Part shown: in pieces, positions 1,948-44,881 of the stretch | Position numbering within the stretch: the stretch's first letter is position 1 | Layout of the letters: each line of letters starts with the position of its first letter | Sequence record: PP920552.1 | Reading direction: 5' to 3' (one strand) | DNA: 44,881 bases | Source: Escherichia phage SM_A2 | Position numbers and translations under genes: made by a program | The notes under the pieces: model-generated | Told to the model about the DNA's origin: nothing | The model's input: only the letters and a program-made list of their open reading frames with translations | Databases searched by the model: none

Positions 1948-3468
1948 ATGACCGTTAACGTTGACAACCAGCACCCACTCTATGCGCGTATCGCGCCAGA
2001 GTGGAAAATGATCCGGGATTGTGTAGCCGGGGAGCGCGCCGTTAAGGCGTGCGGCCCTTTATACCTGCCACATCCCGCCAGCGGCGACAATACCGACCCG
2101 AAATCACGGGCGCGGTATAAGGCGTATAAGCAACGCGCTGTATTCCTGAACGCCACCGCCCGCACACTTAACGCGCTGTTGGGCGTTGCCTTTGCAAAAC
2201 CGGTAAGTCTGGACCTTTCCGGGGCGATGGCTGACCTGATTGATGACGTAGACGGCAGCGGTATGCCATTGCCGCAACTCCTGCGCGGTGCTATGTCGGA
2301 AGTTCTGCAATCGGGCCGCGCTGGCTTTATGGTGGACTACGACCGCCAGGCCCACTTTGACGAACTGGGTAACGTAGTGCCGCAGACCGCCGCCGAGATG
2401 GCTGCGCACCGTCCGCTTATCCGCCTGTATACGGCAGAACAGATCATCAACTGGCGGCAGACCCACGGTGTTGACACGCTAATCGTGCTGAAGGAAACGG
2501 ATGAGATCAGCACCGAAGACCCGGACGACTTCGCAAACCACGAAGTAACCATCTGGACCGAGCTTCGCATGATTGACGGCAAGGCGCACGCCCGCCGCTG
2601 GTATTACAACGCTGACACGTCCGAGGTGCAAATGGACTTGCCGCGTGGCTTCACCCGCACCGACCTTGTGCCATTGGTGGATGCTTCCGGTAATGCGCTT
2701 ACGCAACTGCCATTTTGCTGGTGTGGCGCGGTGGACAACAACGCATCCCCTGACGCCGCGCCGCTGGCGGATATTGCGTCCATCAACATTAAGCACTACA
2801 ACGCCGAAGCGGACGTCGCCGAGATCGCGCACATTGTGGGCCAGCCGACCCTCGTTGCTACGGGCCTGACTCAATCATGGGCTGACAAAAACCTGAAGGG
2901 TGGCATTGCTCTCGGCGCAACTAAGGGCGTTATCCTGGGCCAGAACATGGACGCTAAACTTATTCAGGCCGAGGAGCGCAACTTGTCTGTTGCACTGTGT
3001 GAGCGCCGCGAGTTGCAAATGGCTAAACTTGGCGCGGCCCTGGTTGAGAAGGGGACCGCACCTAAGACGGCAACCGAAGCGGCCTACGATGCGCAGACTG
3101 ACAACAGTATCCTGTCACTGATTGCCGGTAACGTTGAGAAGGCTTTCAACCGGGCGCTGCAAATTGTCCAGCTATTCACTGGAGACACCGCCGACCAGCG
3201 CGTGACGCTGAACAAGTTCTACACCGAAATCTCGGTTGATGCGCAGCTTATGACTGCAATGATGGCGGGTGTGCAGACTGGTACGGTCCGACTTGCTGAC
3301 TTCATCAAGTGGATGATGGCGCAGGGCGTCATTGATGACTCGCAAACCGTCGAGCAGGTAGAAGACGAATTGCGAAATCAGAATCCATTGCCTCAAATGT
3401 CCACGGATGCGGTAGAATCTACCGAAGAAGACCCGGACAAGGTAGCGGACAATGGCGAGAACGATTAA
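1948..3468 (+). CDS. portal protein
   Basis: 506 aa ORF immediately after terminase with RBS AAGGAAACG before ATG at 1948; size and position typical of portal; acidic C-terminus. Confidence 0.75.
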   Translation: MTVNVDNQHPLYARIAPEWKMIRDCVAGERAVKACGPLYLPHPASGDNTDPKSRARYKAYKQRAVFLNATARTLNALLGVAFAKPVSLDLSGAMADLIDDVDGSGMPLPQLLRGAMSEVLQSGRAGFMVDYDRQAHFDELGNVVPQTAAEMAAHRPLIRLYTAEQIINWRQTHGVDTLIVLKETDEISTEDPDDFANHEVTIWTELRMIDGKAHARRWYYNADTSEVQMDLPRGFTRTDLVPLVDASGNALTQLPFCWCGAVDNNASPDAAPLADIASINIKHYNAEADVAEIAHIVGQPTLVATGLTQSWADKNLKGGIALGATKGVILGQNMDAKLIQAEERNLSVALCERRELQMAKLGAALVEKGTAPKTATEAAYDAQTDNSILSLIAGNVEKAFNRALQIVQLFTGDTADQRVTLNKFYTEISVDAQLMTAMMAGVQTGTVRLADFIKWMMAQGVIDDSQTVEQVEDELRNQNPLPQMSTDAVESTEEDPDKVADNGEND

Positions 3469-5006: not shown

Positions 5007-5771
5007 TTAGCGCGGAATACCGCAGATTTCGTTTAACGTCTTCACGTCCAGCGCCACCGCCGTGGACTTCGGCTTGTCCTGGTATGGAATAAACTGTTCA
5101 ACTTCAGGCCACGCCTTGATCAGCTTCTTATCGGTATTGTGCATATCCAGCACGCCGGTAACAGTTAGTTTGAACGCATCATACTTAGCACGCAACTCGC
5201 GGCGGGCTTTGTCGTTACGGTCCAGGCGCTTACAGAAATCATGGTCTGCCGGGCAGTCTATACGACCGCGTGGCTTATATATCGGCAGCGCTTTCCCGTC
5301 GTCGTCGACTTCGCACACTGACGCTAACAAAATTTCCTCATACCCAGGCACAATATCGCCGAGGTCTGGAGACAGCTTATTCATGTATTTATACTCCCAG
5401 TATCCGCGATGTACTCGGAATCGGTACCCGTCTCCGCTCAATGACACGGTACGGACGTTTCCGCCTGCGTTGATTTCGAAAGTGGCGTCATAAACGCTGC
5501 CAATACCTTTTGGGCGGTCGGAGTCGAAACGATATGTAGCCTTATTGGTGTATACGCAAACGCCGTACATCTGCGACGGGTCATCGCCGATTGCTTCAAT
5601 GCGCGCACGTAGCTCGGCGAACGTATGAATGCCTACAGGCATACAGCGCAACGCAATGTCATACGCCAGGTCGCGAGAGTCCATCATGATTTTTTTGGCT
5701 TCAGTAGTGATTTCGTGGTCGCGCAGGATGTTAGCCAGAATCTGGTTTTTAATGTCTTTTGTCAGTCTCAT
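5007..5771 (-). CDS. hypothetical protein (accessory gene in head module)
   Basis: 254 aa ORF on the opposite strand to the surrounding structural genes; ATG at 5771 with GAGGA RBS; no motif recognised. Confidence 0.6.
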   Translation of the reverse strand: MRLTKDIKNQILANILRDHEITTEAKKIMMDSRDLAYDIALRCMPVGIHTFAELRARIEAIGDDPSQMYGVCVYTNKATYRFDSDRPKGIGSVYDATFEINAGGNVRTVSLSGDGYRFRVHRGYWEYKYMNKLSPDLGDIVPGYEEILLASVCEVDDDGKALPIYKPRGRIDCPADHDFCKRLDRNDKARRELRAKYDAFKLTVTGVLDMHNTDKKLIKAWPEVEQFIPYQDKPKSTAVALDVKTLNEICGIPR

Positions 5772-5815
5772 TTTCGTGTCCTCGTTGTTGGGGCTTTCGC
5801 CCCGTTTGGCTTGGT

Positions 5816-6130
5816 TTAGTTAAACTTGATGTTGCCACCGGTGGAAGTTAAGCGAGCGCATACGGCTTCAACGGCATCGACGCACATGAAATCGTTAAAG
5901 GCTTCTACCAGGGATTTGATGAAAGATGCCGGAACCAGACCGCAAGCCGGGTTATCGAAGGTTGCGGAATTGATTGCGGCCTTCGCTGCTTCAGTAGCAT
6001 TCATGCTCTGGCACAGATTCAGCGCTTCGGCGTTACGCATAGCATGAAAGGTGAAGGTTTTAGCTACGGTAGCTTTATTGAAACGGGTCATTGCTACGTC
6101 TACTGGAGTTGCTACGGTCATGTTAGTCAT
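5816..6130 (-). CDS. hypothetical protein (accessory gene in head module)
   Basis: 104 aa from the ATG at 6130, which has an AAGGA RBS 7 nt upstream (the ORF track extends to 6181); own promoter upstream; no motif recognised. Confidence 0.5.
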   Translation of the reverse strand: MTNMTVATPVDVAMTRFNKATVAKTFTFHAMRNAEALNLCQSMNATEAAKAAINSATFDNPACGLVPASFIKSLVEAFNDFMCVDAVEAVCARLTSTGGNIKFN

Positions 6131-6165
6131 CTTGTTTTCCTTCATATCTCTGTTGGTGTGCAACC

Positions 6166-6195
6166 AATATATTGCAACCAATACCCATATTGCAA
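6166..6195 (-). promoter_or_regulatory. sigma70-like promoter with ATTGGTTGCA motif (leftward)
   Basis: Read on the minus strand: TTGCAA (-35, fwd 6190-6195), 18-nt spacer containing ATTGGTTGCA, TATATT (-10, fwd 6166-6171); a second TGCAACCAAT copy at 6159-6168; upstream of gene 5816-6130. Confidence 0.5.
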
Positions 6196-6284
6196 GCGAA
6201 TTTTGCGATTATTTTTATCGCTGATAATATTAAGGCGTGAAGTCGAGCGGGTGGCCCGCTCTGCCACAATCCCAGGGGGATAGC

Positions 6285-8744: not shown

Positions 8745-9188
<444 letters not shown>

Positions 9189-9215
9189 CATGGCGGGATT
9201 TAACTACGCAGGCTT

Positions 9216-9285
<70 letters not shown>

Positions 9286-9300
9286 CGAAGGGGGAGTAAC

Positions 9301-9654
9301 ATGGCGGGATTTAACTACGCAGGCTTGAAGCGGAAAGTAAATCCGCTGATTAAAAAATACGGCATGACCGTTAAGGTGACGCGTCCGGGGTCTGTTGACC
9401 GCGTAGACGGCGAAGAAGTGGTTATCCCGCCAACGTCGTTTGATGTCATCGGTCTTCGCGAGGAGTACAAGCCCAGCGAGATCGACGGGACTCGTATCAT
9501 TGCCGGTGACGTTAAGTTCTTATGCCAGGCATCGGAGCAAGTGCAGGTAGGCGATCTGGTTAACCTGAATAGCACGGACTACCGTGTTATCAATCCAAAT
9601 CCACTGCAACCGGCGGGAACTACCATGCTGTTTCAATTACAGCTAAGGGGCTAA
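9301..9654 (+). CDS. head-tail joining protein (putative); alternative in-frame start at 9190
   Basis: ATG 9301 preceded by AAGGGGGAG; an identical RBS+ATG lies 111 nt upstream (9190) in the same frame, which would add MAGFNYAGL-(SQ)11-SRRGSN. Confidence 0.4.
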   Translation: MAGFNYAGLKRKVNPLIKKYGMTVKVTRPGSVDRVDGEEVVIPPTSFDVIGLREEYKPSEIDGTRIIAGDVKFLCQASEQVQVGDLVNLNSTDYRVINPNPLQPAGTTMLFQLQLRG

Positions 9655-11890: not shown

Positions 11891-12204
11891 TTGAGGCGGC
11901 GCGACGCTTTTATGGCCCGCCGCCACCATCCGAAGATTTAGCCGCGAGTTTATGGGGCGCGACCCCTGAAGACGTTTGCCCTCCGGTTGCACTATGGCCA
12001 GACAATGCGAAGGTAGTCGCAGTCTTCACAGATTGCTCCACGCAATGGCGTACCGGATTCGGTGGCGCATACGGCATCGACTACGGCGTACTGGAATGGC
12101 TATTTAAGATGCACGGCATCGAAAACGCGCAACGTGCGTTTAAAGATATCAAGCTAATGGAACGCGTTGCGCTGGATGAAATGGCGCGGCAGAACCCCGC
12201 ATAA
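11528..12204 (+). CDS. tail assembly chaperone frameshift product (gpGT-like, via -1 shift at 11881-11887)
   Basis: The -1 frame is open from the slippery site A_AAA_AAC (11881-11887) to TAA at 12202-12204 (about 105 further codons) and has no start codon of its own. Confidence 0.6.
11881..11887 (+). other. programmed -1 ribosomal frameshift slippery heptamer A_AAA_AAC
   Basis: X_XXY_YYZ heptamer at the last codons of the chaperone ORF, 1 nt before its stop; -1 frame continues open downstream. Confidence 0.6.
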
Positions 12205-12588
12205 CGGAGCGGGACAGGCGGGACGTCCCGTTTTGCCCCGCACCTCTAAAACTGCATATTTACGCACCACAATTGCATAAATTAAAAGCGGGACAGGCGG
12301 GACGCCCCGTTTTGTCCCACCCCCAAAATGTGAATGTCTATTCAGTTTTAGTGCATAAACTAAGCGGGACAAAAAGCGGGACAGAATGAGGCGGGACAAA
12401 GCGGGACAGCACCCCCGTCCCCACCAGTGCTGCCGCGGTTTTTAGCCGATCGGGACAGGCGGGACAAAGCCCAGTCTTTCAGACTAGACGGGGGTCAATG
12501 GCCCCCCTCGTCTGAGACTGAATAAGGTTTGTTTTAAATTCGCTGATACAATGACAAACGGCAACTGCATAAAAAGGGGGACTGCATA
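12205..12588. repeat. non-coding iteron/hairpin element, copy 1
   Basis: 384-bp gap with no convincing ORF; about 10 copies of GCGGGAC(A); two 35-bp direct repeats (12209-12243 and 12288-12322); a long imperfect hairpin at 12472-12520; A(C/T)TGCATAA copies. Confidence 0.8.
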
Positions 12589-22433: not shown

Positions 22434-22451
22434 AAGCCCCGAAAGGGGCTT
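22434..22451. terminator. hairpin between convergent genes (weak bidirectional terminator)
   Basis: AAGCCCC-GAAA-GGGGCTT perfect hairpin; the T-tract is weak on both sides. Confidence 0.5.
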
Positions 22452-22668
22452 ATTTGCAGGTTGTGCTTTTGAAGTGGTCGACCGACACATACTGGAAGTT
22501 GAACGGATACCCCGCCTTGAGCATTTTGTGCCCGCTAAAGTCGGTGACACCGAACACCGGTACAGAATACTCCATACCACTATTCACATATGTTGCGTCG
22601 CAGATTTTTGATGGCATGTCGGCGCAGCCGGTCAAAAGAACAGCACAAATCATAATTAAGGTTTTCAT
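22450..22668 (-). CDS. small lipoprotein (Cor/Llp-like superinfection exclusion candidate)
   Basis: ATG at 22668 with AGGAGAT RBS; signal peptide MKTLIMICAVLLTGC with classical lipobox LLTG-C; about 57-aa mature part; minus-strand with own promoter, between J-like and tail fibre genes. Confidence 0.6.
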   Translation of the reverse strand: MKTLIMICAVLLTGCADMPSKICDATYVNSGMEYSVPVFGVTDFSGHKMLKAGYPFNFQYVSVDHFKSTTCK

Positions 22669-22699
22669 GTTATCATCTCCTGTATTGGGTTGAGTTTTA

Positions 22700-22727
22700 G
22701 TATTACACCGCTCAACCACGAATGCAA
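22700..22727 (-). promoter_or_regulatory. sigma70-like promoter with ATTGGTTGCA motif (leftward, lipoprotein gene)
   Basis: Read on the minus strand: ATTGGTTGCAT supplies TTGCAT (-35), 16-nt spacer, TAATAC (-10, fwd 22700-22705), about 30 nt upstream of the lipoprotein ATG. Confidence 0.5.
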
Positions 22728-22747
22728 CCAATTTATGAGGATTTAGC

Positions 22748-25587: not shown

Positions 25588-25617
25588 ACTATAGTGCAAC
25601 CAACCTATTGGTTGCAA
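25588..25617 (-). promoter_or_regulatory. sigma70-like promoter with palindromic TGCAACCAA-N4-TTGGTTGCA motif (leftward)
   Basis: Minus-strand reading: TTGCAA (-35, fwd 25612-25617), 18-nt spacer, TATAGT (-10, fwd 25588-25593); overlaps the stop of gene 25605-26075; followed by hairpin GGGGGC-AATACA-GCCCCC (25561-25578). Confidence 0.5.
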
Positions 25618-27254: not shown

Positions 27255-27288
27255 AATATAATGCAACCAATATGATTATGCAACCAAT
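27255..27288 (-). promoter_or_regulatory. sigma70-like promoter with tandem ATTGGTTGCA motifs (leftward)
   Basis: Minus-strand reading: ATTGGTTGCAT (-35 = TTGCAT, fwd 27278-27283), 17-nt spacer containing a second ATTGGTTGCA, TATATT (-10, fwd 27255-27260); a near-complementary hairpin plus T-run follows in the leader (fwd 27228-27250). Confidence 0.55.
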
Positions 27289-30211: not shown

Positions 30212-30250
30212 ACTATACCGCTATGCGACCAATTCAGCAACCAATAAATC
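30212..30250 (-). promoter_or_regulatory. sigma70-like promoter with tandem ATTGGT(T/C)GC motifs (leftward)
   Basis: Minus-strand reading: ATTGGTTGCTG (-35 = TTGCTG, fwd 30235-30240), 17-nt spacer containing ATTGGTCGCA, TATAGT (-10, fwd 30212-30217); lies inside the 3' end of the VRR-NUC gene. Confidence 0.45.
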
Positions 30251-33816: not shown

Positions 33817-33885
33817 ATGTATCGGGGTTATTGGAAGCCACCCCGTTCGGCTTGGTTGCTAATCTACTTGGTTGCGCCTACGCGG

Positions 33886-34128
33886 TCAAGCATTTTCATT
33901 AAAAAGATTTCTGGTCACGTAGTTGGTAGCGTTCTCGATCCAGCTTAGCGGCGGGCGTTCGATGTTCTTTTCCACCCAATCGACGGCAACTTCGCTATAT
34001 CCGTCATCCAGCCAGCGGGTCGGATGGCGAATCATCCACGCCACCATTAACACGCCTTGCACGCAATGCAGGATAAAGCCCAGCGCGCCGAGCAAAAACA
34101 TCAATAAGATTGCGAATACTTTATTCAT
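33886..34128 (-). CDS. small membrane protein (hypothetical)
   Basis: 80 aa; two hydrophobic helices (VFAILLMFLLGALGFIL, GVLMVAWMI). Confidence 0.45.
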   Translation of the reverse strand: MNKVFAILLMFLLGALGFILHCVQGVLMVAWMIRHPTRWLDDGYSEVAVDWVEKNIERPPLSWIENATNYVTRNLFNENA

Positions 34129-36029: not shown

Positions 36030-36641
36030 TTAATCTTCCAGTTCGAAATAAGTTTCGACGATTTCTTTAAGATCTTTGTGGAAGTCTTCGACGTCGTCAT
36101 CTTCCAGCTTGGCGATTGATTTGATCTCGAACGATTCCAGCAGGTCGTCGAATTCGTCGTTGGCATCGTCGTCGTCACCACCAGCGATAATAGCGGCGTA
36201 TTGTTTGATCTCATCGCGCATCTCCGCCAGCGGATCGGCATCTTTCTTGCCTTTGCCTTTCGCCGGGGCTTTTTTAGATTTAGCCGGTTTTTCGTCTTCG
36301 GCGTCATCGTCGTCATCTTCTTCTACGACTTCTTTTTTGGCCTTACCTTTCGCCGGGGCTTTTTTAGATTTAGCCGGTTTTTCGTCTTCGGCGTCATCGT
36401 CGTCATCTTCTTCTACGACTTCTTTTTTCGCCTTACCTTTCGCCGGGGCTTTTTTAGATTTAGCCGGTTTTTCGTCTTCGGCGTCATCGTCGTCATCTTC
36501 TTCTACGACTTCTTTTTTCGCCTTAGACGGCTTCTTGTCTTCCTGCTTACCAACGGCAGCGCCAACGGTTTCATAATGCTTAGCGATGGTTTCCAGTGCT
36601 ACTACGCCGCGAGTAATCAGGTTTACGATTTGTTCAAACAT
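36030..36641 (-). CDS. charged-repeat protein, first gene of leftward operon
   Basis: 203 aa; three tandem 38-aa repeats (KKEVVEEDDDDDAEDEKPAKSKKAPAKGKAKK) from 114-bp DNA repeats (about 36245-36530); strongly acidic C-terminus; GGAGAT RBS. Confidence 0.6.
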   Translation of the reverse strand: MFEQIVNLITRGVVALETIAKHYETVGAAVGKQEDKKPSKAKKEVVEEDDDDDAEDEKPAKSKKAPAKGKAKKEVVEEDDDDDAEDEKPAKSKKAPAKGKAKKEVVEEDDDDDAEDEKPAKSKKAPAKGKGKKDADPLAEMRDEIKQYAAIIAGGDDDDANDEFDDLLESFEIKSIAKLEDDDVEDFHKDLKEIVETYFELED

Positions 36642-36846
36642 GTTTTATATCTCCGATTGGTTAAGTTTAGGTGTCGGCAGTTAACTTCGTCGGTGGCCTT
36701 AACATATTGCCAGGTTGCGCGTTCTCCCGTTCGGGTAGTGGACCGGGTTATATATTCACGGTTGGGAATCCTGACACTTCGATCCGGCCCCTGCGTTGCC
36801 CCTCTCCAGTTTGCGTCCTGCATCCTGTCGACGGGGTGAATAATAG

Positions 36847-36879
36847 ATTGGTTGCAGGATGGGTGTCAACAACTAATTT
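36847..36879 (+). promoter_or_regulatory. sigma70-like promoter with ATTGGTTGCA motif (rightward)
   Basis: ATTGGTTGCAG (-35 = TTGCAG 36852-36857), 16-nt spacer, TAATTT (-10, 36874-36879). Confidence 0.4.
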
Positions 36880-36985
36880 CAAAAAAAAAGCGCCGAGGCA
36901 AAATGCGACGGCGCTAACCAATAAGAGACAATGAGACGGGAATTATTATTACACGCGTGCGCGCCCGTTTCAATATCCAAAGGAT

Positions 36986-37014
36986 TTGACACCTTGCGGT
37001 TTTAGGTGTAGTTT
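36986..37014 (+). promoter_or_regulatory. sigma70-like promoter (rightward)
   Basis: TTGACA (36986-36991), 17-nt spacer, TAGTTT (37009-37014); about 30 nt upstream of ATG 37046. Confidence 0.5.
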
Positions 37015-37045
37015 CATTGGTCATTAACCAACTGGGGACATAACA

Positions 37046-37375
37046 ATGAATGTAAACGACGCAATCGAAATGTTAACGAAGACTGTTAGCAGTGAAACAA
37101 GCCGGTCATGGGCTTATACCGATGCCGTTGGGGCGGTGCTGTTTGAGGTCGAGCGCCTGCGCAGTGTAGAAAAAGAATTACGCGCCAGGCTGGAATTGCT
37201 CAACGGTACTGCAGCAAGCAAGCTGCAAAAGCACAATGAAGAAATGGAAGAATACAAAAAACAGGTTATCCGTTTGCGCGCCGAGGGCAAATCCTGGGCG
37301 ATGATTGCCGAGTTGACCGGAATTAATCGGAGCACAGTGCGCTCCTGGGTACGCAATAATAAAACTTCTAAGTAA
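37046..37375 (+). CDS. HTH DNA-binding regulator (putative)
   Basis: 109 aa; coiled-coil N-terminal half; C-terminal HTH resembling sigma-70 region 4/LuxR type (GKSWAMIAELTGINRSTVRSWVRNN); first gene of the rightward operon. Confidence 0.55.
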   Translation: MNVNDAIEMLTKTVSSETSRSWAYTDAVGAVLFEVERLRSVEKELRARLELLNGTAASKLQKHNEEMEEYKKQVIRLRAEGKSWAMIAELTGINRSTVRSWVRNNKTSK

Positions 37376-39650: not shown

Positions 39651-39741
39651 ATTTTGCGCGCATTGGTTGCCATTTTGCGTGCTTTTAGGTGGTCGCATTG
39701 GTTGCCGCGTAGTGTAAATATGATGAATAGTTATGCAATAA

Positions 39742-39914
39742 AACTGCATAAAACAAACGGGACAAAAAGCGGGACAAACAGGGGGCGGGACAAAGCGGGA
39801 CAGCACCCCTGTCCCGCCCCGGATGACGCGGCCTGGCGAGGAGCGGGACAGCGGGACAGCACCCCAGTCTTTCAGACTAGACGGGGGGTCTGGCACCCCC
39901 CTCGTCTGAGACTG
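39742..39914. repeat. non-coding iteron/hairpin element, copy 2
   Basis: Paralogue of 12361-12520: about 6 GCGGGACA copies, A(C/T)TGCATAA copies and the conserved long hairpin (39865-39914); lies in the 480-bp gap after the primase-helicase gene. Confidence 0.8.
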
Positions 39915-40068
39915 CATAAAATCCGGGATTGCATAATACACGGCAACAAGATGCAAATTGCGGTCGTCGATGAACTAGGCAACCAATGCGAGCTGCAGAA
40001 TGGCGGGTGAAAAATGCAGTTTGCAGTTACAGCAGATAGCGATCAACTTTTTCATGCGCGTGATTAAT

Positions 40069-40102
40069 ATTGGTTGCATTCACCCTGGCACCCTGCTATT
40101 TT
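40069..40102 (+). promoter_or_regulatory. sigma70-like promoter with two ATTGGTTGCA-type motifs (rightward)
   Basis: ATTGGTTGCAT (-35 = TTGCAT 40074-40079), 17-nt spacer, TATTTT (40097-40102); a second motif TTTGGTTGCAC overlaps the -10/+1 region; about 20 nt upstream of the AAGAGGA RBS of gene 40131. Confidence 0.55.
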
Positions 40103-40130
40103 GGTTGCACACCAACAAGAGGACTGAACG

Positions 40131-40445: not shown

Positions 40446-40715
40446 ATGGACCGCAGACGCGCAAAACGCCTTTCATGGCGTATTCCACTGCATTGCATAC
40501 GAATATGGGCTAAGAATGCGAATGAGGGCGATTCTGTGTTCTGGTGCTACAGCGATGATGTGAAGCCATTAACGCAGACCCGCTACTTGCGCCAGTTCGC
40601 CAGGGAGCATGGGTTAGCCATAAAAACGTCCTTGCAACCAATTGGCATTCGTATTACATTACGCCGGAAGCCCGCCGTTGAGCGGGTAGGCAAACACTGG
40701 AGACTGAGCAAATGA
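40446..40715 (+). CDS. hypothetical protein
   Basis: 89 aa; AAGGGG RBS; basic; ends in the duplicated junction GGAGACTGAGCAAATGA. Confidence 0.5.
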   Translation: MDRRRAKRLSWRIPLHCIRIWAKNANEGDSVFWCYSDDVKPLTQTRYLRQFAREHGLAIKTSLQPIGIRITLRRKPAVERVGKHWRLSK

Positions 40716-44764: not shown

Positions 44765-44881
44765 CCCTCCCAGCCTGCCGATTTGGTGGGCTTTTTTGTG
44801 CCTGTTATAATCCCAATTAGATGGCAGGGCCGTCTCCTATGTTGCCGATGGTCGGCGCATATGCACAAAAGGGCTTATATC

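Follow-up and report, generated by a model that had tools for sequence, protein, structure and literature searches.

The operators of phage lambda that are bound by Cro and CI are short conserved sites repeated within the -35 element, the spacer and the -10 element of divergent early promoters, and the first gene past PR encodes a small helix-turn-helix (HTH) protein. Both features recur in the phage described here, and a similar outcome, the turning down of early transcription during lytic growth, would be expected. The lambda operators, however, are 17-bp pseudo-palindromes read by dimers, with three per promoter at two loci, whereas the present site is an asymmetric 10-mer that occurs in either orientation, in one or two copies, at at least nine promoters of a virulent phage. 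It does not form a dyad operator of about 17 bp, and the HTH protein falls outside the Cro/CI (HTH_3) type. In the IncP plasmid RK2, KorA/KorB provide another parallel: the conserved operator of a small repressor occupies defined registers in many promoters of the replicon, with extra sites near the origin. One site shared by many promoters, with additional origin-near copies, is also what we find here, but KorA and KorB are known plasmid proteins with palindromic operators, and no KorA/KorB homolog was detected in our phage.

Two other systems use short asymmetric sites. The MotA box of phage T4 is an asymmetric element of 9-10 bp that stands in for the -35 hexamer with constant spacing to a sigma70-type -10, much like one class of the copies described below. 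It occupies a single position (about -30, with sigma appropriation by AsiA) in a single orientation, whereas of the present copies more than half are inverted or located in the spacer or at +1. The heptamers recognized by NarL and GerE, which have LuxR-type HTH domains, are likewise short and asymmetric and vary in number, spacing and orientation, as here. Such sites can have positive or negative effects. The candidate HTH protein of our phage differs from NarL and GerE in having no receiver or ligand domain, and its resemblance to them is generic to tri-helical HTHs.

The DNA analysed is a 44,881-nucleotide window from Escherichia phage SM_A2 (PP920552.1), a virulent Dhillonvirus (HK578-like) that infects E. 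coli. The decamer ATTGGTTGCA is present in nine exact copies in the whole window against 0.08 expected, a number reached in none of 100 shuffles, and in 16 copies when one mismatch is allowed (3.4 expected; shuffle maximum, 9). Its core, TTGGTTGC, is the top enriched non-tandem 8-mer in the window, with 18 copies against 1.6-1.7 expected. Thirteen of the 18 are strictly intergenic, in a genome where intergenic sequence makes up 7.1% of bases (binomial P = 7e-12), and three more are found at gene edges. These counts on both strands bear out the original prediction that the decamer recurs above chance in intergenic and gene-end positions. The coordinates given there were right or 1-3 nt off, but an exact copy at 40633-40642 (minus strand) was missing from the list, as were two degenerate copies of the form CTTGGTTGC(T/G), one at 33851-33860 and the other at 33867-33876. 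The copy at 40633 lies antisense within the gene at 40446-40715, has no promoter assigned to it, and is also present in the related phage CHD5UKE2. The information content of the motif is limited to 10 bp and is asymmetric, with no dyad and essentially no information in the flanks, which fits one reading head per site. A palindrome, TTGGT-N5-ACCAA, is found at only three promoters. An Rfam search of the window gave nothing at the gathering threshold, and no tRNA was found.

The copies keep strict distances from the promoter elements around them. Measured from the start of the 8-mer, -10-like hexamers begin at precisely +27, +10 or -4; each of these offsets is represented by three sites in the window, while by chance 0.15 offsets with at least three sites would be expected. 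Over eight Dhillonvirus genomes, the unique contexts at the +27, +10 and -4 offsets number 21, 21 and 26. The motif thus sits in three registers: as the -35 element (A), in the spacer against the -10 (B), or over the -10 and +1 (C), and both orientations are used, including inverted copies. Copies in register A are indistinguishable from a plain -35 element. Those in the spacer or over the start site, such as the inverted copy of PL, have no part in polymerase recognition, and positions in the polymerase footprint that are dispensable for recognition are occupied at PL, P33k, P6k-L, P25k, P27k and P40k. In all of the promoters, hexamers resembling the -35 and -10 elements are 16-18 nt apart, on the correct strand and upstream of a gene. 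PL, P33k, P6k-L and P25k were recovered by a consensus promoter scan; the elements of P27k, P30k, P40k, P22k and PR were identified directly in the sequence, with 16-17-nt spacers.

PL, which drives the leftward replication operon (36840-36869, minus strand), was the best promoter of the scan, with 11/12 consensus matches: TTGACA at 36869-36864, an 18-nt spacer and TATTAT at 36845-36840. Its spacer holds a copy at 36847-36856 (plus strand; TTGACAcccatccTGCAACCAATcTATTAT) that is inverted relative to PL transcription, is directed away from the transcribed genes, and is conserved in seven genomes; PL already has its own TTGACA. On the other side, the promoter of the HTH gene, PR (36986-37032, plus strand), comprises TTGACA at 36986-36991, a 17-nt spacer and TAGTTT at 37009-37014, followed by a related palindrome, ATTGGTcattaACCAAC, at 37016-37032 (plus strand; about -5 to +12). 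This palindrome is conserved in seven genomes, and the PR element with ATTGGTcattaACCAAC is absent in CHD5UKE2. Within the leftward cluster, P33k (33889-33861, minus strand; TTGACC-17-TAGATT) precedes an SSB-like gene and has two degenerate, inverted copies on the plus strand: one in the spacer, abutting the -10, at 33867-33876 (GCAACCAAG on the promoter strand), and one directly downstream of the -10 at 33851-33860 (about -6 to +4). At P30k, the register-A copy ATTGGTTGCT (30236-30245, minus strand; one mismatch) supplies a -35 TTGCTG 17 nt from TATAGT at 30217-30212, and a second copy in the spacer, ATTGGTCGCA (30224-30233, minus strand; one mismatch), lies 6 nt from the -10. P27k has two exact copies on the minus strand. 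The register-A copy at 27279-27288 (about -40 to -31), invariant in seven Dhillonviruses, provides the -35 TTGCAT (27283-27278), with a 17-nt spacer to TATATT at 27260-27255; the register-B copy at 27262-27271 (about -23 to -14) is 1 nt from this -10. P25k (25617-25588, minus strand; TTGCAA-18-TATAGT) has an inverted copy at 25607-25616 (plus strand), where the palindromic TTGCAA at 25617-25612 (minus strand) is the -35, and a register-B copy, GTTGGTTGCA, at 25595-25604 (minus strand; one mismatch), whose orientation varies among relatives.

The remaining promoters lie outside this cluster. P6k-L (6195-6166, minus strand; TTGCAA-18-TATATT) carries a register-B copy in the spacer at 6173-6182 (minus strand) and an exact register-C copy over the -10 and +1 at 6159-6168 (minus strand) that extends to the palindrome ATTGGTtgcacACCAAC. 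P22k, with a single register-A copy at 22723-22732 (minus strand; TTGCAT, a 16/17-nt spacer and TAATAC/AATACT), precedes a cor-like superinfection-exclusion gene at 22450-22671 (minus strand). In the rightward P40k, a register-A copy at 40069-40078 (plus strand) provides the -35 TTGCAT (40074-40079), 17 nt from TATTTT at 40097-40102, and a register-C copy, TTTGGTTGCA, at 40100-40109 (plus strand) extends to the palindrome TTGGTtgcacACCAA. Two likely promoters of structural genes are without the motif: an extended -10, TGTTATAAT, upstream of terS, and TTGCGA-16-TAATAT in front of the scaffold gene. The notion that TTGCA serves as the -35 in most cases applies at about five promoters (copies at 27279, 22723, 40069 and 30236, and at 25607 by way of the palindromic TTGCAA); the others occupy the spacer or the -10/+1 region, or surround an origin-like region. 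A match in orientation to the downstream gene, which had also been proposed, fails at 36847, 33851, 33867, 25607, 39978 and 40633.

Alignment of seven genomes showed that the copies are invariant while the linkers between them vary; P27k, for example, keeps both copies. Mean identity was 0.77 in motif columns and 0.59 in other intergenic columns (P = 6e-15), and motif columns were more conserved even than the -10 and -35 hexamers. In LM40P1, P22k has gained a second copy, in register B, and both P25k copies are direct; in the slurp05-type relative slur05 the copy at the P25k register-B position is inverted. In a divergent contig, L134, the PL spacer holds two contiguous inverted copies and a true inverted decamer is located just downstream of PR.

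The observations made here are the enrichment of the motif, its location in promoters, its three registers, its independence of orientation and its selective conservation. As judged from the sequence, it is somewhat probable that ATTGGTTGCA, with its core TTGGTTGC, is an operator that represses the promoters of non-structural genes and is read by a sequence-specific DNA-binding protein. We infer the binding of a protein, its negative effect and its identity; that the effect would be repression rather than activation is deduced from position. In this model, the compact asymmetric site would be present in one or two copies within the promoter core (-40 to +4) of sigma70-type promoters for non-structural genes, which would be used by the host RNA polymerase. 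TTGCA forms part of the motif, so that a copy at -35 would double as the -35 hexamer. Whichever of the three registers it occupied, a bound protein would keep RNA polymerase off the promoter, and the result would be coordinated repression, either shut-off or dosing, of early and middle transcription. The regulon would comprise PL, PR (through its related palindrome) and the promoters of the leftward replication cluster at 33.9, 30.2, 27.3 and 25.6 kb, as well as the rightward promoter at 40.1 kb and the two leftward units at 6.2 and 22.7 kb that lie within the structural module. The drift of the linkers, the flips in orientation, the gain of copies and the two structural promoters without a site fit an operator better than a plain promoter element. 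The original prediction had offered both a phage-specific early promoter family and a shared operator. The former holds insofar as the sites lie in sigma70-like promoters of non-structural genes and the register-A TTGCA(T) is a -35 located 17 nt from a TATAxT -10, but it leaves the spacer, start-site and inverted copies unexplained; the latter fits the geometry, the orientation independence and the phylogenetic footprints. The two likely structural-gene promoters carry no site, but P40k, with its sites, precedes accessory, lysis and ultimately structural genes, so that an escape of the late genes is not clean.

Within Dhillonvirus, the best single candidate for the regulator is, tentatively and with considerable doubt, the 109-residue HTH protein encoded at 37046-37375 (plus strand), which had been proposed for this role from the start. 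Its N-terminus is hypervariable and its C-terminal HTH invariant, and it also has a long helix. Pfam matches included HTH_23, HTH_28 and Sigma70_r4_2 (28.3 bits against a threshold of 25.7), while that to HTH_3 (Cro/CI) was below threshold (17.9 against 23 bits). An AlphaFold2 model (pLDDT 84) gave only generic Foldseek matches, limited to the HTH part and all with E-values above 0.3. The best superposition of the HTH was with domains of the LuxR/GerE/NarL type, over about 35 residues at an rmsd of about 1 Å, and the matches also took in the HTHs of IS21 transposase and serine recombinases. Alignment showed the HTH, like the motif, to be invariant across the genus; the CHD5UKE2 protein is 48% identical overall with the HTH itself conserved. 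Among about 30 small early proteins annotated with PHROG and Pfam, no other DNA-binding family was found, leaving the HTH protein as the only recognizable early DNA-binding protein, and its own promoter bears the related site. It co-occurs with the motif within Dhillonvirus. However, its candidacy is weakened because the family is confined to Dhillonvirus while the 8-mer is enriched beyond the genus. A small phage protein that escaped detection and a host protein are collectively at least as likely.

Copies of the motif also surround an origin-like region. The 8-mer iteron GCGGGACA is clustered at 39.77-39.86 kb and at 12.2-12.5 kb, and one of these two distant clusters directly follows the helicase-primase gene. 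Two variant copies, CGCATTGGTTGCC, at 39662-39671 and 39697-39706 (plus strand), just past the helicase-primase stop codon, form the left flank of the iterons, and another, ATTGGTTGCC, at 39978-39987 (minus strand), the right flank. There is no convincing promoter at 39662-39706, where relatives have two or three copies. The copy at 39978 forms an inverted repeat with 39656-39671 (16 nt, 94% complementary) and 39693-39706 (14 nt, 100%). Plasmid Rep proteins combine iterons with an operator, and satellite phage P4 has ori/crr iterons. The present arrangement resembles these in its two distant iteron clusters, one after the helicase-primase gene and flanked by the motif, and in the palindromic version of the site at the candidate regulator's own promoter, but differs in that the iterons and the promoter motif have different sequences. 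The motif itself is not iteron-like, being dispersed in one or two copies per promoter, unlike a head-to-tail cluster.

Two phages outside the genus are also enriched in the core TTGGTTGC: Klebsiella phage 37P2 about 10-fold, and Serratia phage Smarc3 about 7-fold. Position -1 is A in Dhillonvirus and G in these two phages, in both of which the core again adjoins iterons. Most copies in Smarc3 are within genes, so that the cross-genus signal may be heterogeneous. The HTH protein is absent from both phages, and a relaxed search for cryptic copies of its HTH there revealed weak resemblance in the small-terminase HTH only; a non-homologous XRE protein occupies the position of the HTH gene. The HTH genes at this syntenic position vary in step with the iterons of each lineage, and not with the motif. 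None of the proteins restricted to motif-positive genomes looked like a DNA-binding protein.

Several other functions for the motif can be weighed against repression. We consider positive control unlikely, in which a phage activator or a sigma-appropriation factor would recognize the motif, at about -35, as the element of middle promoters. The reader could be the HTH protein, with its likeness to sigma70 region 4, together with host polymerase, as at the T4 MotA box; copies in the spacer and at +1 would then be secondary, for example self-limiting at high regulator concentration. Such a role would suit the weak -35s of register A (TTGCAT/TTGCTG, 3/6), which lie exactly 17 nt from good -10s, the direct orientation of the asymmetric motif in this register, and a protein that passes the Sigma70_r4_2 threshold and whose gene has a consensus early promoter. 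On the other hand, more than half of the copies (spacer, -10/+1 and PL) are located where a bound activator would block polymerase, orientation flips between relatives, and the promoters with only spacer or +1 copies have good -35s (TTGACA, TTGACC or TTGCAA); no MotA/AsiA-like family was found among about 30 proteins scanned. That the extra conserved bases merely hitch-hiked in a promoter family that spread by duplication, without a separate function, seems scarcely credible. The segment GCAAAATTCrCTTGCAA is common to P6k and P25k, and TAT(A/T)TTGGTTGCACACCAACA to P6k and P40k, but the flanks outside the 10-mer are near-devoid of information, both orientations and three registers are used, copies are kept while adjacent bases drift, and the core persists across genera.

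It is quite improbable that the site belongs to a conserved enterobacterial DNA-binding protein through which these phages adjust their early transcription and, perhaps, the function of their origin. Such a host reader is suggested by an 8-mer that is identical across lineages whose iterons and syntenic HTH genes have diverged, by the failure to find a phage DNA-binding protein common to the motif-positive lineages, and by copies that flank origin-like iterons in three lineages; host factors often bind beside origins. Parts of the motif also recall host sites: GTTGCA is the PutA operator hexamer, GTTGCATT a CytR half-site, and ATTGGT a half-site of GntR regulators of the PdhR/ExuR type. These host motifs, however, never span the whole 10-mer, and related phages of the same hosts lack the motif, with two copies of the core in SenTO17, three in K1G and one in Arya. 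The lineage-specific base at position -1 suggests a phage factor that co-evolves with the site, and a search of bacterial genomes for paired decamers returned scattered taxa, with no enterobacterial record among the matches listed. A primary role in replication or another DNA transaction, for example as an accessory origin site, with presence in promoters being secondary, is very improbable. It would account for the three to four variant copies ending in GCC that bracket the GCGGGACA cluster as an inverted repeat, and for the iteron-adjacent cores in 37P2 and Smarc3. But most copies are scattered over the promoters, singly or in pairs and in fixed registers, the second iteron cluster has none, and the helicase-primase has no segment specific to motif-positive phages.

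A repressor site at promoters would be an ordinary kind of feature, and we rate the present instance as new. Searches of the literature on promoters and transcription in Dhillonvirus, HK578 and Jerseyvirinae found nothing relevant, a search with the motif string returned only primer noise, and the transcription programme of Dhillonviruses is undescribed in the literature searched. These are common, easily isolated E. coli phages that are represented in the BASEL collection and in studies of phage therapy and defence systems. One 10-bp site that marks nearly all early and middle promoters provides a ready map of transcription units; as an engineering handle, operators could be mutated or added in order to de-repress or silence modules, and the decamer is a concrete bait with which the regulator could be identified by DNA pull-down. 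The broader proposition, that one and the same 8-bp operator core governs the early promoters of two or more deeply diverged groups (Dhillonvirus, and Klebsiella phage 37P2 with Serratia phage Smarc3, which are Guernseyvirinae-like) without a recognizable common regulator, so that the reader would be a host protein or a new small phage protein family, is one that we rate as possible though rather unlikely. A host protein could make the site a global switch of virulent phages, acting on early genes and around the origin; a new family would be one of small DNA-binding phage proteins that sequence comparison does not reveal. If either were true, unrelated virulent siphoviruses would have converged on, or inherited, one global switch. 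As a variant, the sigma-region-4-like HTH of Dhillonvirus might compete directly with sigma70 for TTG-containing -35 elements.

Some additional leads were considered and rejected. When IMG/VR was scanned loosely for paired 8-mers, most of the hits were chance matches or tandem repeats in coding sequence (contigs L122, L042 and L054). In another contig, L119, TAATTGGTTGCATC occurs 12 times within a 450-bp stretch upstream of an ORF whose N-terminus looks like an HTH; the ORF is unlike the HTH protein of the window and has no Pfam domain, and the array was judged to be coincidental iterons favoured by the design of the search. The helicase-primase was discarded as a reader of the site, having no segment conserved only in motif-positive phages. 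A Dam-like methyltransferase was the sole enzyme restricted to motif-positive genomes, but its distribution is explained by GATC: counts of this tetranucleotide are normal where the Dam-like gene is present, and fall to 1 in SenTO17 and 11 in K1G.

The window represents an essentially complete 44.9 kb genome of a Dhillonvirus, an HK578-like, virulent E. coli siphovirus, with 91–93% identity to phages UHP65, EC115 and jat. According to the ORF list and the annotation of the relatives Envy and TheodorHerzl, a rightward structural module extends from terS at position 1 to the tail genes at ≈22.4 kb, interrupted by two small leftward units (5007–6121 and the cor-like gene at 22450–22671). The tail-fibre gene comes next in the listed order, followed by the leftward replication and DNA-metabolism cluster (24.4–36.6 kb), a divergent control region (36.64–37.05 kb) and a rightward cluster encoding a 109-aa HTH protein, the helicase-primase, a 480-bp non-coding region, accessory and lysis genes, and then terS again. 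The first leftward unit includes a minus-strand gene (5007–5771) that matches the Pfam nucleotide-modification-associated domain 5 (Nmad5; E = 1e-55). It is oriented against the surrounding structural module and would be expressed from the motif-bearing promoter P6k-L.

The motif is real, conserved and far beyond random expectation. Nine exact copies of the decamer ATTGGTTGCA were found in the window, where 0.08 would be expected, and 16 at ≤1 mismatch (3.4 expected). Its core, TTGGTTGC, occurs 18 times (1.7 expected) and, leaving out a hexamer tandem array in coding sequence, ranks first for enrichment in an unbiased 8-mer search. Of the 18 core copies, 13 are strictly intergenic, whereas intergenic DNA accounts for just 7.1% of the genome (P = 7e-12); a further three sit at gene edges. 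Genome-wide recurrence at intergenic or gene-end positions, as originally predicted, was thus borne out; the predicted coordinates were right to within 1–3 nt, but an exact intragenic copy (40633–40642) and a degenerate pair (33851/33867) had been overlooked. The site is compact and has no dyad; outside the fixed 8-mer, only −1 and +9 carry information, A being present at 72% and 60% of Dhillonvirus sites, respectively.

Relative to −10-like hexamers, the copies fall into three sharp registers. In register A (copies 27279, 22723, 40069 and 30236), the decamer lies at ≈−40 to −31, and its TTGCA(T) forms a −35 element exactly 17 nt from TATAxT. In register B (27262, 6173 and 25595), it occupies the spacer at ≈−23 to −14 and abuts the −10, and in register C (6159 and 40100) it spans ≈−9 to +1. 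Three of the 18 sites in the window are found at each of the three offsets, when ≈0.15 offsets with at least three sites would be expected by chance, and eight Dhillonvirus genomes provide 21–26 unique contexts at each offset. The tandem spacings of 17, 14 and 31 nt noted previously are simply combinations of these registers.

Individual promoters illustrate the arrangement. PL, the leftward promoter of the replication operon (36869..36840, minus strand; TTGACA-18-TATTAT, 11/12), is the strongest early-region promoter in the consensus scan, and the copy at 36847 lies within its spacer, inverted relative to PL transcription. Because it sits in this minus-strand spacer, that copy was ruled out as the rightward promoter of the HTH gene. 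The promoter before the SSB-like gene (33889..33861; TTGACC-17-TAGATT), also from the consensus scan, has two degenerate inverted copies, in the spacer and just past the −10. P6k-L (6195..6166; TTGCAA-18-TATATT) bears a spacer copy and a second one over +1, while in P25k (25617..25588; TTGCAA-18-TATAGT) the −35 is the palindromic TTGCAA of an inverted copy and a direct copy fills the spacer. The original description is for the most part correct, but its prediction that orientation matches the downstream gene therefore fails for six copies and was over-generalized. So was the proposal that TTGCA(A/T) serves as the −35 in most cases: it holds for register A, but more than half of all copies are placed where a role in polymerase recognition is impossible and blocking would be expected. 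No motif copy is found at two likely structural-gene promoters, the extended −10 TGTTATAAT upstream of terS (44803–44811) and TTGCGA-16-TAATAT upstream of the scaffold gene (6203–6230). The former, a perfect extended −10 with no −35, is preceded by a terminator-like hairpin with a T-run (region 44780–44811) and could be a late promoter.

Seven aligned Dhillonviruses share invariant motif copies, whereas the sequence between copies varies: the P27k linker, for instance, is aatcat, tgcgag or tacggg depending on the genome. LM40P1 has gained an extra register-B copy at P22k. At P25k, the position is kept, with inverted and direct copies in the window, two direct copies in LM40P1 and two inverted copies in slur05. 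In a more divergent contig, the PL spacer holds two inverted copies that are contiguous, the P40k equivalent has two direct copies, and the promoter of the HTH gene is closely followed by a true inverted copy. Across motif-bearing intergenic regions, in an automated alignment with gaps scored as mismatches, mean identity was 0.77 for motif columns and 0.59 for other columns (P = 6e-15), and 45% versus 19% of columns were fully conserved. Motif columns also exceeded the −10 and −35 hexamers in conservation.

A site that lies in the polymerase footprint, is accepted in both orientations and is more strongly constrained than the promoter hexamers themselves argues for an operator, a putative protein-binding site embedded in many promoters. 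A copy at −35 would double as a −35 element because the motif contains TTGCA. Of the two interpretations originally offered, an operator shared among promoters is therefore better supported than an early promoter family. In the model we favor, a protein would, judging from position, bind the site and repress early and middle transcription in a coordinated way. A single regulon would comprise PL, PR (the rightward promoter of the HTH gene), four internal replication-cluster promoters, P40k and the two embedded leftward units. Register-A copies could possibly act as activator sites instead, as those promoters have weak −35s. They resemble T4 MotA boxes, but the likeness fails in that the motif is spread over several positions and both orientations. 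Functionally, the closest analogues are the lambda-type Cro/CI operators at divergent PL/PR and, on IncP plasmids, the global KorA/KorB operators; the lambda operator, however, is a 17-bp dyad, while the motif is asymmetric. No Cro/CI, MotA/AsiA or Kor homologs were found among the proteins scanned. Since the motif lacks their defining features, it falls outside these families and is best filed as a fresh instance of a familiar kind of element, the promoter-embedded operator of a phage regulon. As such, it would organize the entire early program of a widely used, little-studied phage genus.

The HTH protein (37046–37375, plus strand), originally proposed as the regulator, is indeed the only recognizable DNA-binding protein among ≈30 early or small proteins scanned, with above-threshold matches to HTH_23, HTH_28 and Sigma70_r4_2. 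A confident AlphaFold2 model (pLDDT 84) predicts a 54-residue helix followed by a C-terminal helix-turn-helix, and likeness to solved structures is limited to the HTH (LuxR/GerE/NarL, IS21 transposase, resolvase; E > 0.3). In the family, the C-terminal 60 residues are invariant and the N-terminal 45 hypervariable. Its gene is the first after the consensus promoter PR (TTGACA-17-TAGTTT), where ATTGGTcattaACCAAC at ≈+1 has the same architecture as the register-C sites ATTGGTtgcacACCAAC and would fit autoregulation by the HTH protein.

Comparison across genera challenges this candidate. The core is enriched ≈10-fold in Klebsiella phage 37P2, mostly as intergenic, promoter-like copies of the extended form aTGTTGGTTGCAAtat, and ≈7-fold in Serratia phage Smarc3, where many copies are intragenic; Salmonella SenTO17, E. 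coli K1G and Enterobacter phage Arya show no such enrichment. The HTH family, however, is restricted to Dhillonvirus (154 phage records, 24 protein clusters), and 37P2, Smarc3 and SenTO17 have a non-homologous 73–78-aa XRE protein at that position. The iterons beside the helicase-primase gene are lineage-specific (GCGGGACA, TTGCGAGT, TCCGCACA), and variation in the syntenic HTH genes therefore tracks the iterons rather than the promoter motif, which stays constant. Only a capsid type and a Dam-like methylase are restricted to motif-positive genomes, and no helicase-primase segment discriminates motif-positive phages. We consider the HTH protein a plausible binder, short of probable, and another phage protein slightly more likely, though still tentative. 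A host protein reading the motif would explain the constancy of its core, but is rather improbable: the base at −1 is lineage-specific (A versus G), the motif is absent from related phages of the same hosts, and there was no enterobacterial record among the matches listed in a bacterial genome scan. That there is no dedicated binder is the least likely.

The Dam-like methylase was rejected as a link to the motif, since its distribution is explained by GATC (168–236 copies with the gene versus 1 and 11). GATC is nearly absent from SenTO17 (1) and K1G (11), against ≈165 expected, and normal in the methylase encoders (the window, LM40P1, 37P2 and Smarc3). Avoidance and methylation thus look like alternative answers to GATC-targeting restriction.

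The GCGGGACA iterons form two clusters, one of 6–7 copies in both orientations directly after the helicase-primase gene (39757–39860) and one of seven copies in a 698-bp non-coding gap within the tail module (12202–12470), both accompanied by ACTGCATAA(A) repeats. 37P2 (TTGCGAGT) and Smarc3 (TCCGCACA) have their own iterons in the same two-cluster arrangement, a layout suggestive of an origin with a further cis site, similar to P4 ori/crr. An unrelated viral contig (IMG/VR UViG 3300038463_000167) carries an array of (C)TAATTGGTTGCATC(C), with 12 or more copies on both strands packed into 450 bp (region 2700–3200). This array, which lies immediately 5' of an ORF whose N-terminus looks like an HTH and whose product resembles no protein of the window, was judged a coincidental iteron array.

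In the control region, a ≈70-nt minus-strand element (36750–36832) starts at the predicted PL transcription start. It is 87–94% identical to unannotated intergenic DNA of unrelated phages (Drexlerviridae slyngel, KMI8, JLBYU07 and BEBK14; Alux-21; and the temperate myovirus Arya), in every case on the sense strand and right after a TATTA(T/C). There was no Rfam match, and the fold was no better than shuffles (z = 0.7), with one compensatory pair. The element may be a horizontally shared leader, conceivably a put-like antitermination RNA. Between PL and PR lies a small leftward unit (36871–36973, minus strand) with a promoter at 36973..36945 (TTGAAA-17-(TG)AATAAT) and a strong, one-directional terminator at ≈36914–36871 (GCGCCG...CGGCGC, then T9). 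Its predicted transcript is ≈60 nt, with only sub-threshold Rfam matches (E 0.14–1). The product of the first gene in the PL operon (36030–36641, minus strand) is highly charged and includes three perfect 30-aa repeats, KKEVVEEDDDDDAEDEKPAKSKKAPAKGKA, from a 90-bp DNA repeat at 36241–36525. Acidic runs alternate with lysine- and alanine-rich stretches, and homologs occur in all related lineages; the protein could be a DNA mimic or a non-specific DNA binder.

Two other repeats stood out. The GCCAGA hexamer array at 9077–9328 (≈34 copies) bridges two successive head-tail genes, from the end of the first into the beginning of the second, and contains a perfect 111-bp tandem duplication (9105–9328) that includes a ribosome-binding site and start codon. 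The hexamer is not enriched in LM40P1, and the array reflects a recent duplication or, alternatively, an assembly artefact. Across the whole window there are 48 copies of the 8-mer ACGGCA(A/G)C (GYTGCCGT on the opposite strand), about one every kb and 4–8 times as many as expected, with ACGGCARC on the plus strand in 38 cases. It is equally enriched in all relatives (including L007, L008 and L009, the last being SenTO17), among them phages without the promoter motif, and might be a Chi-like or a primase signal, or else a codon effect.
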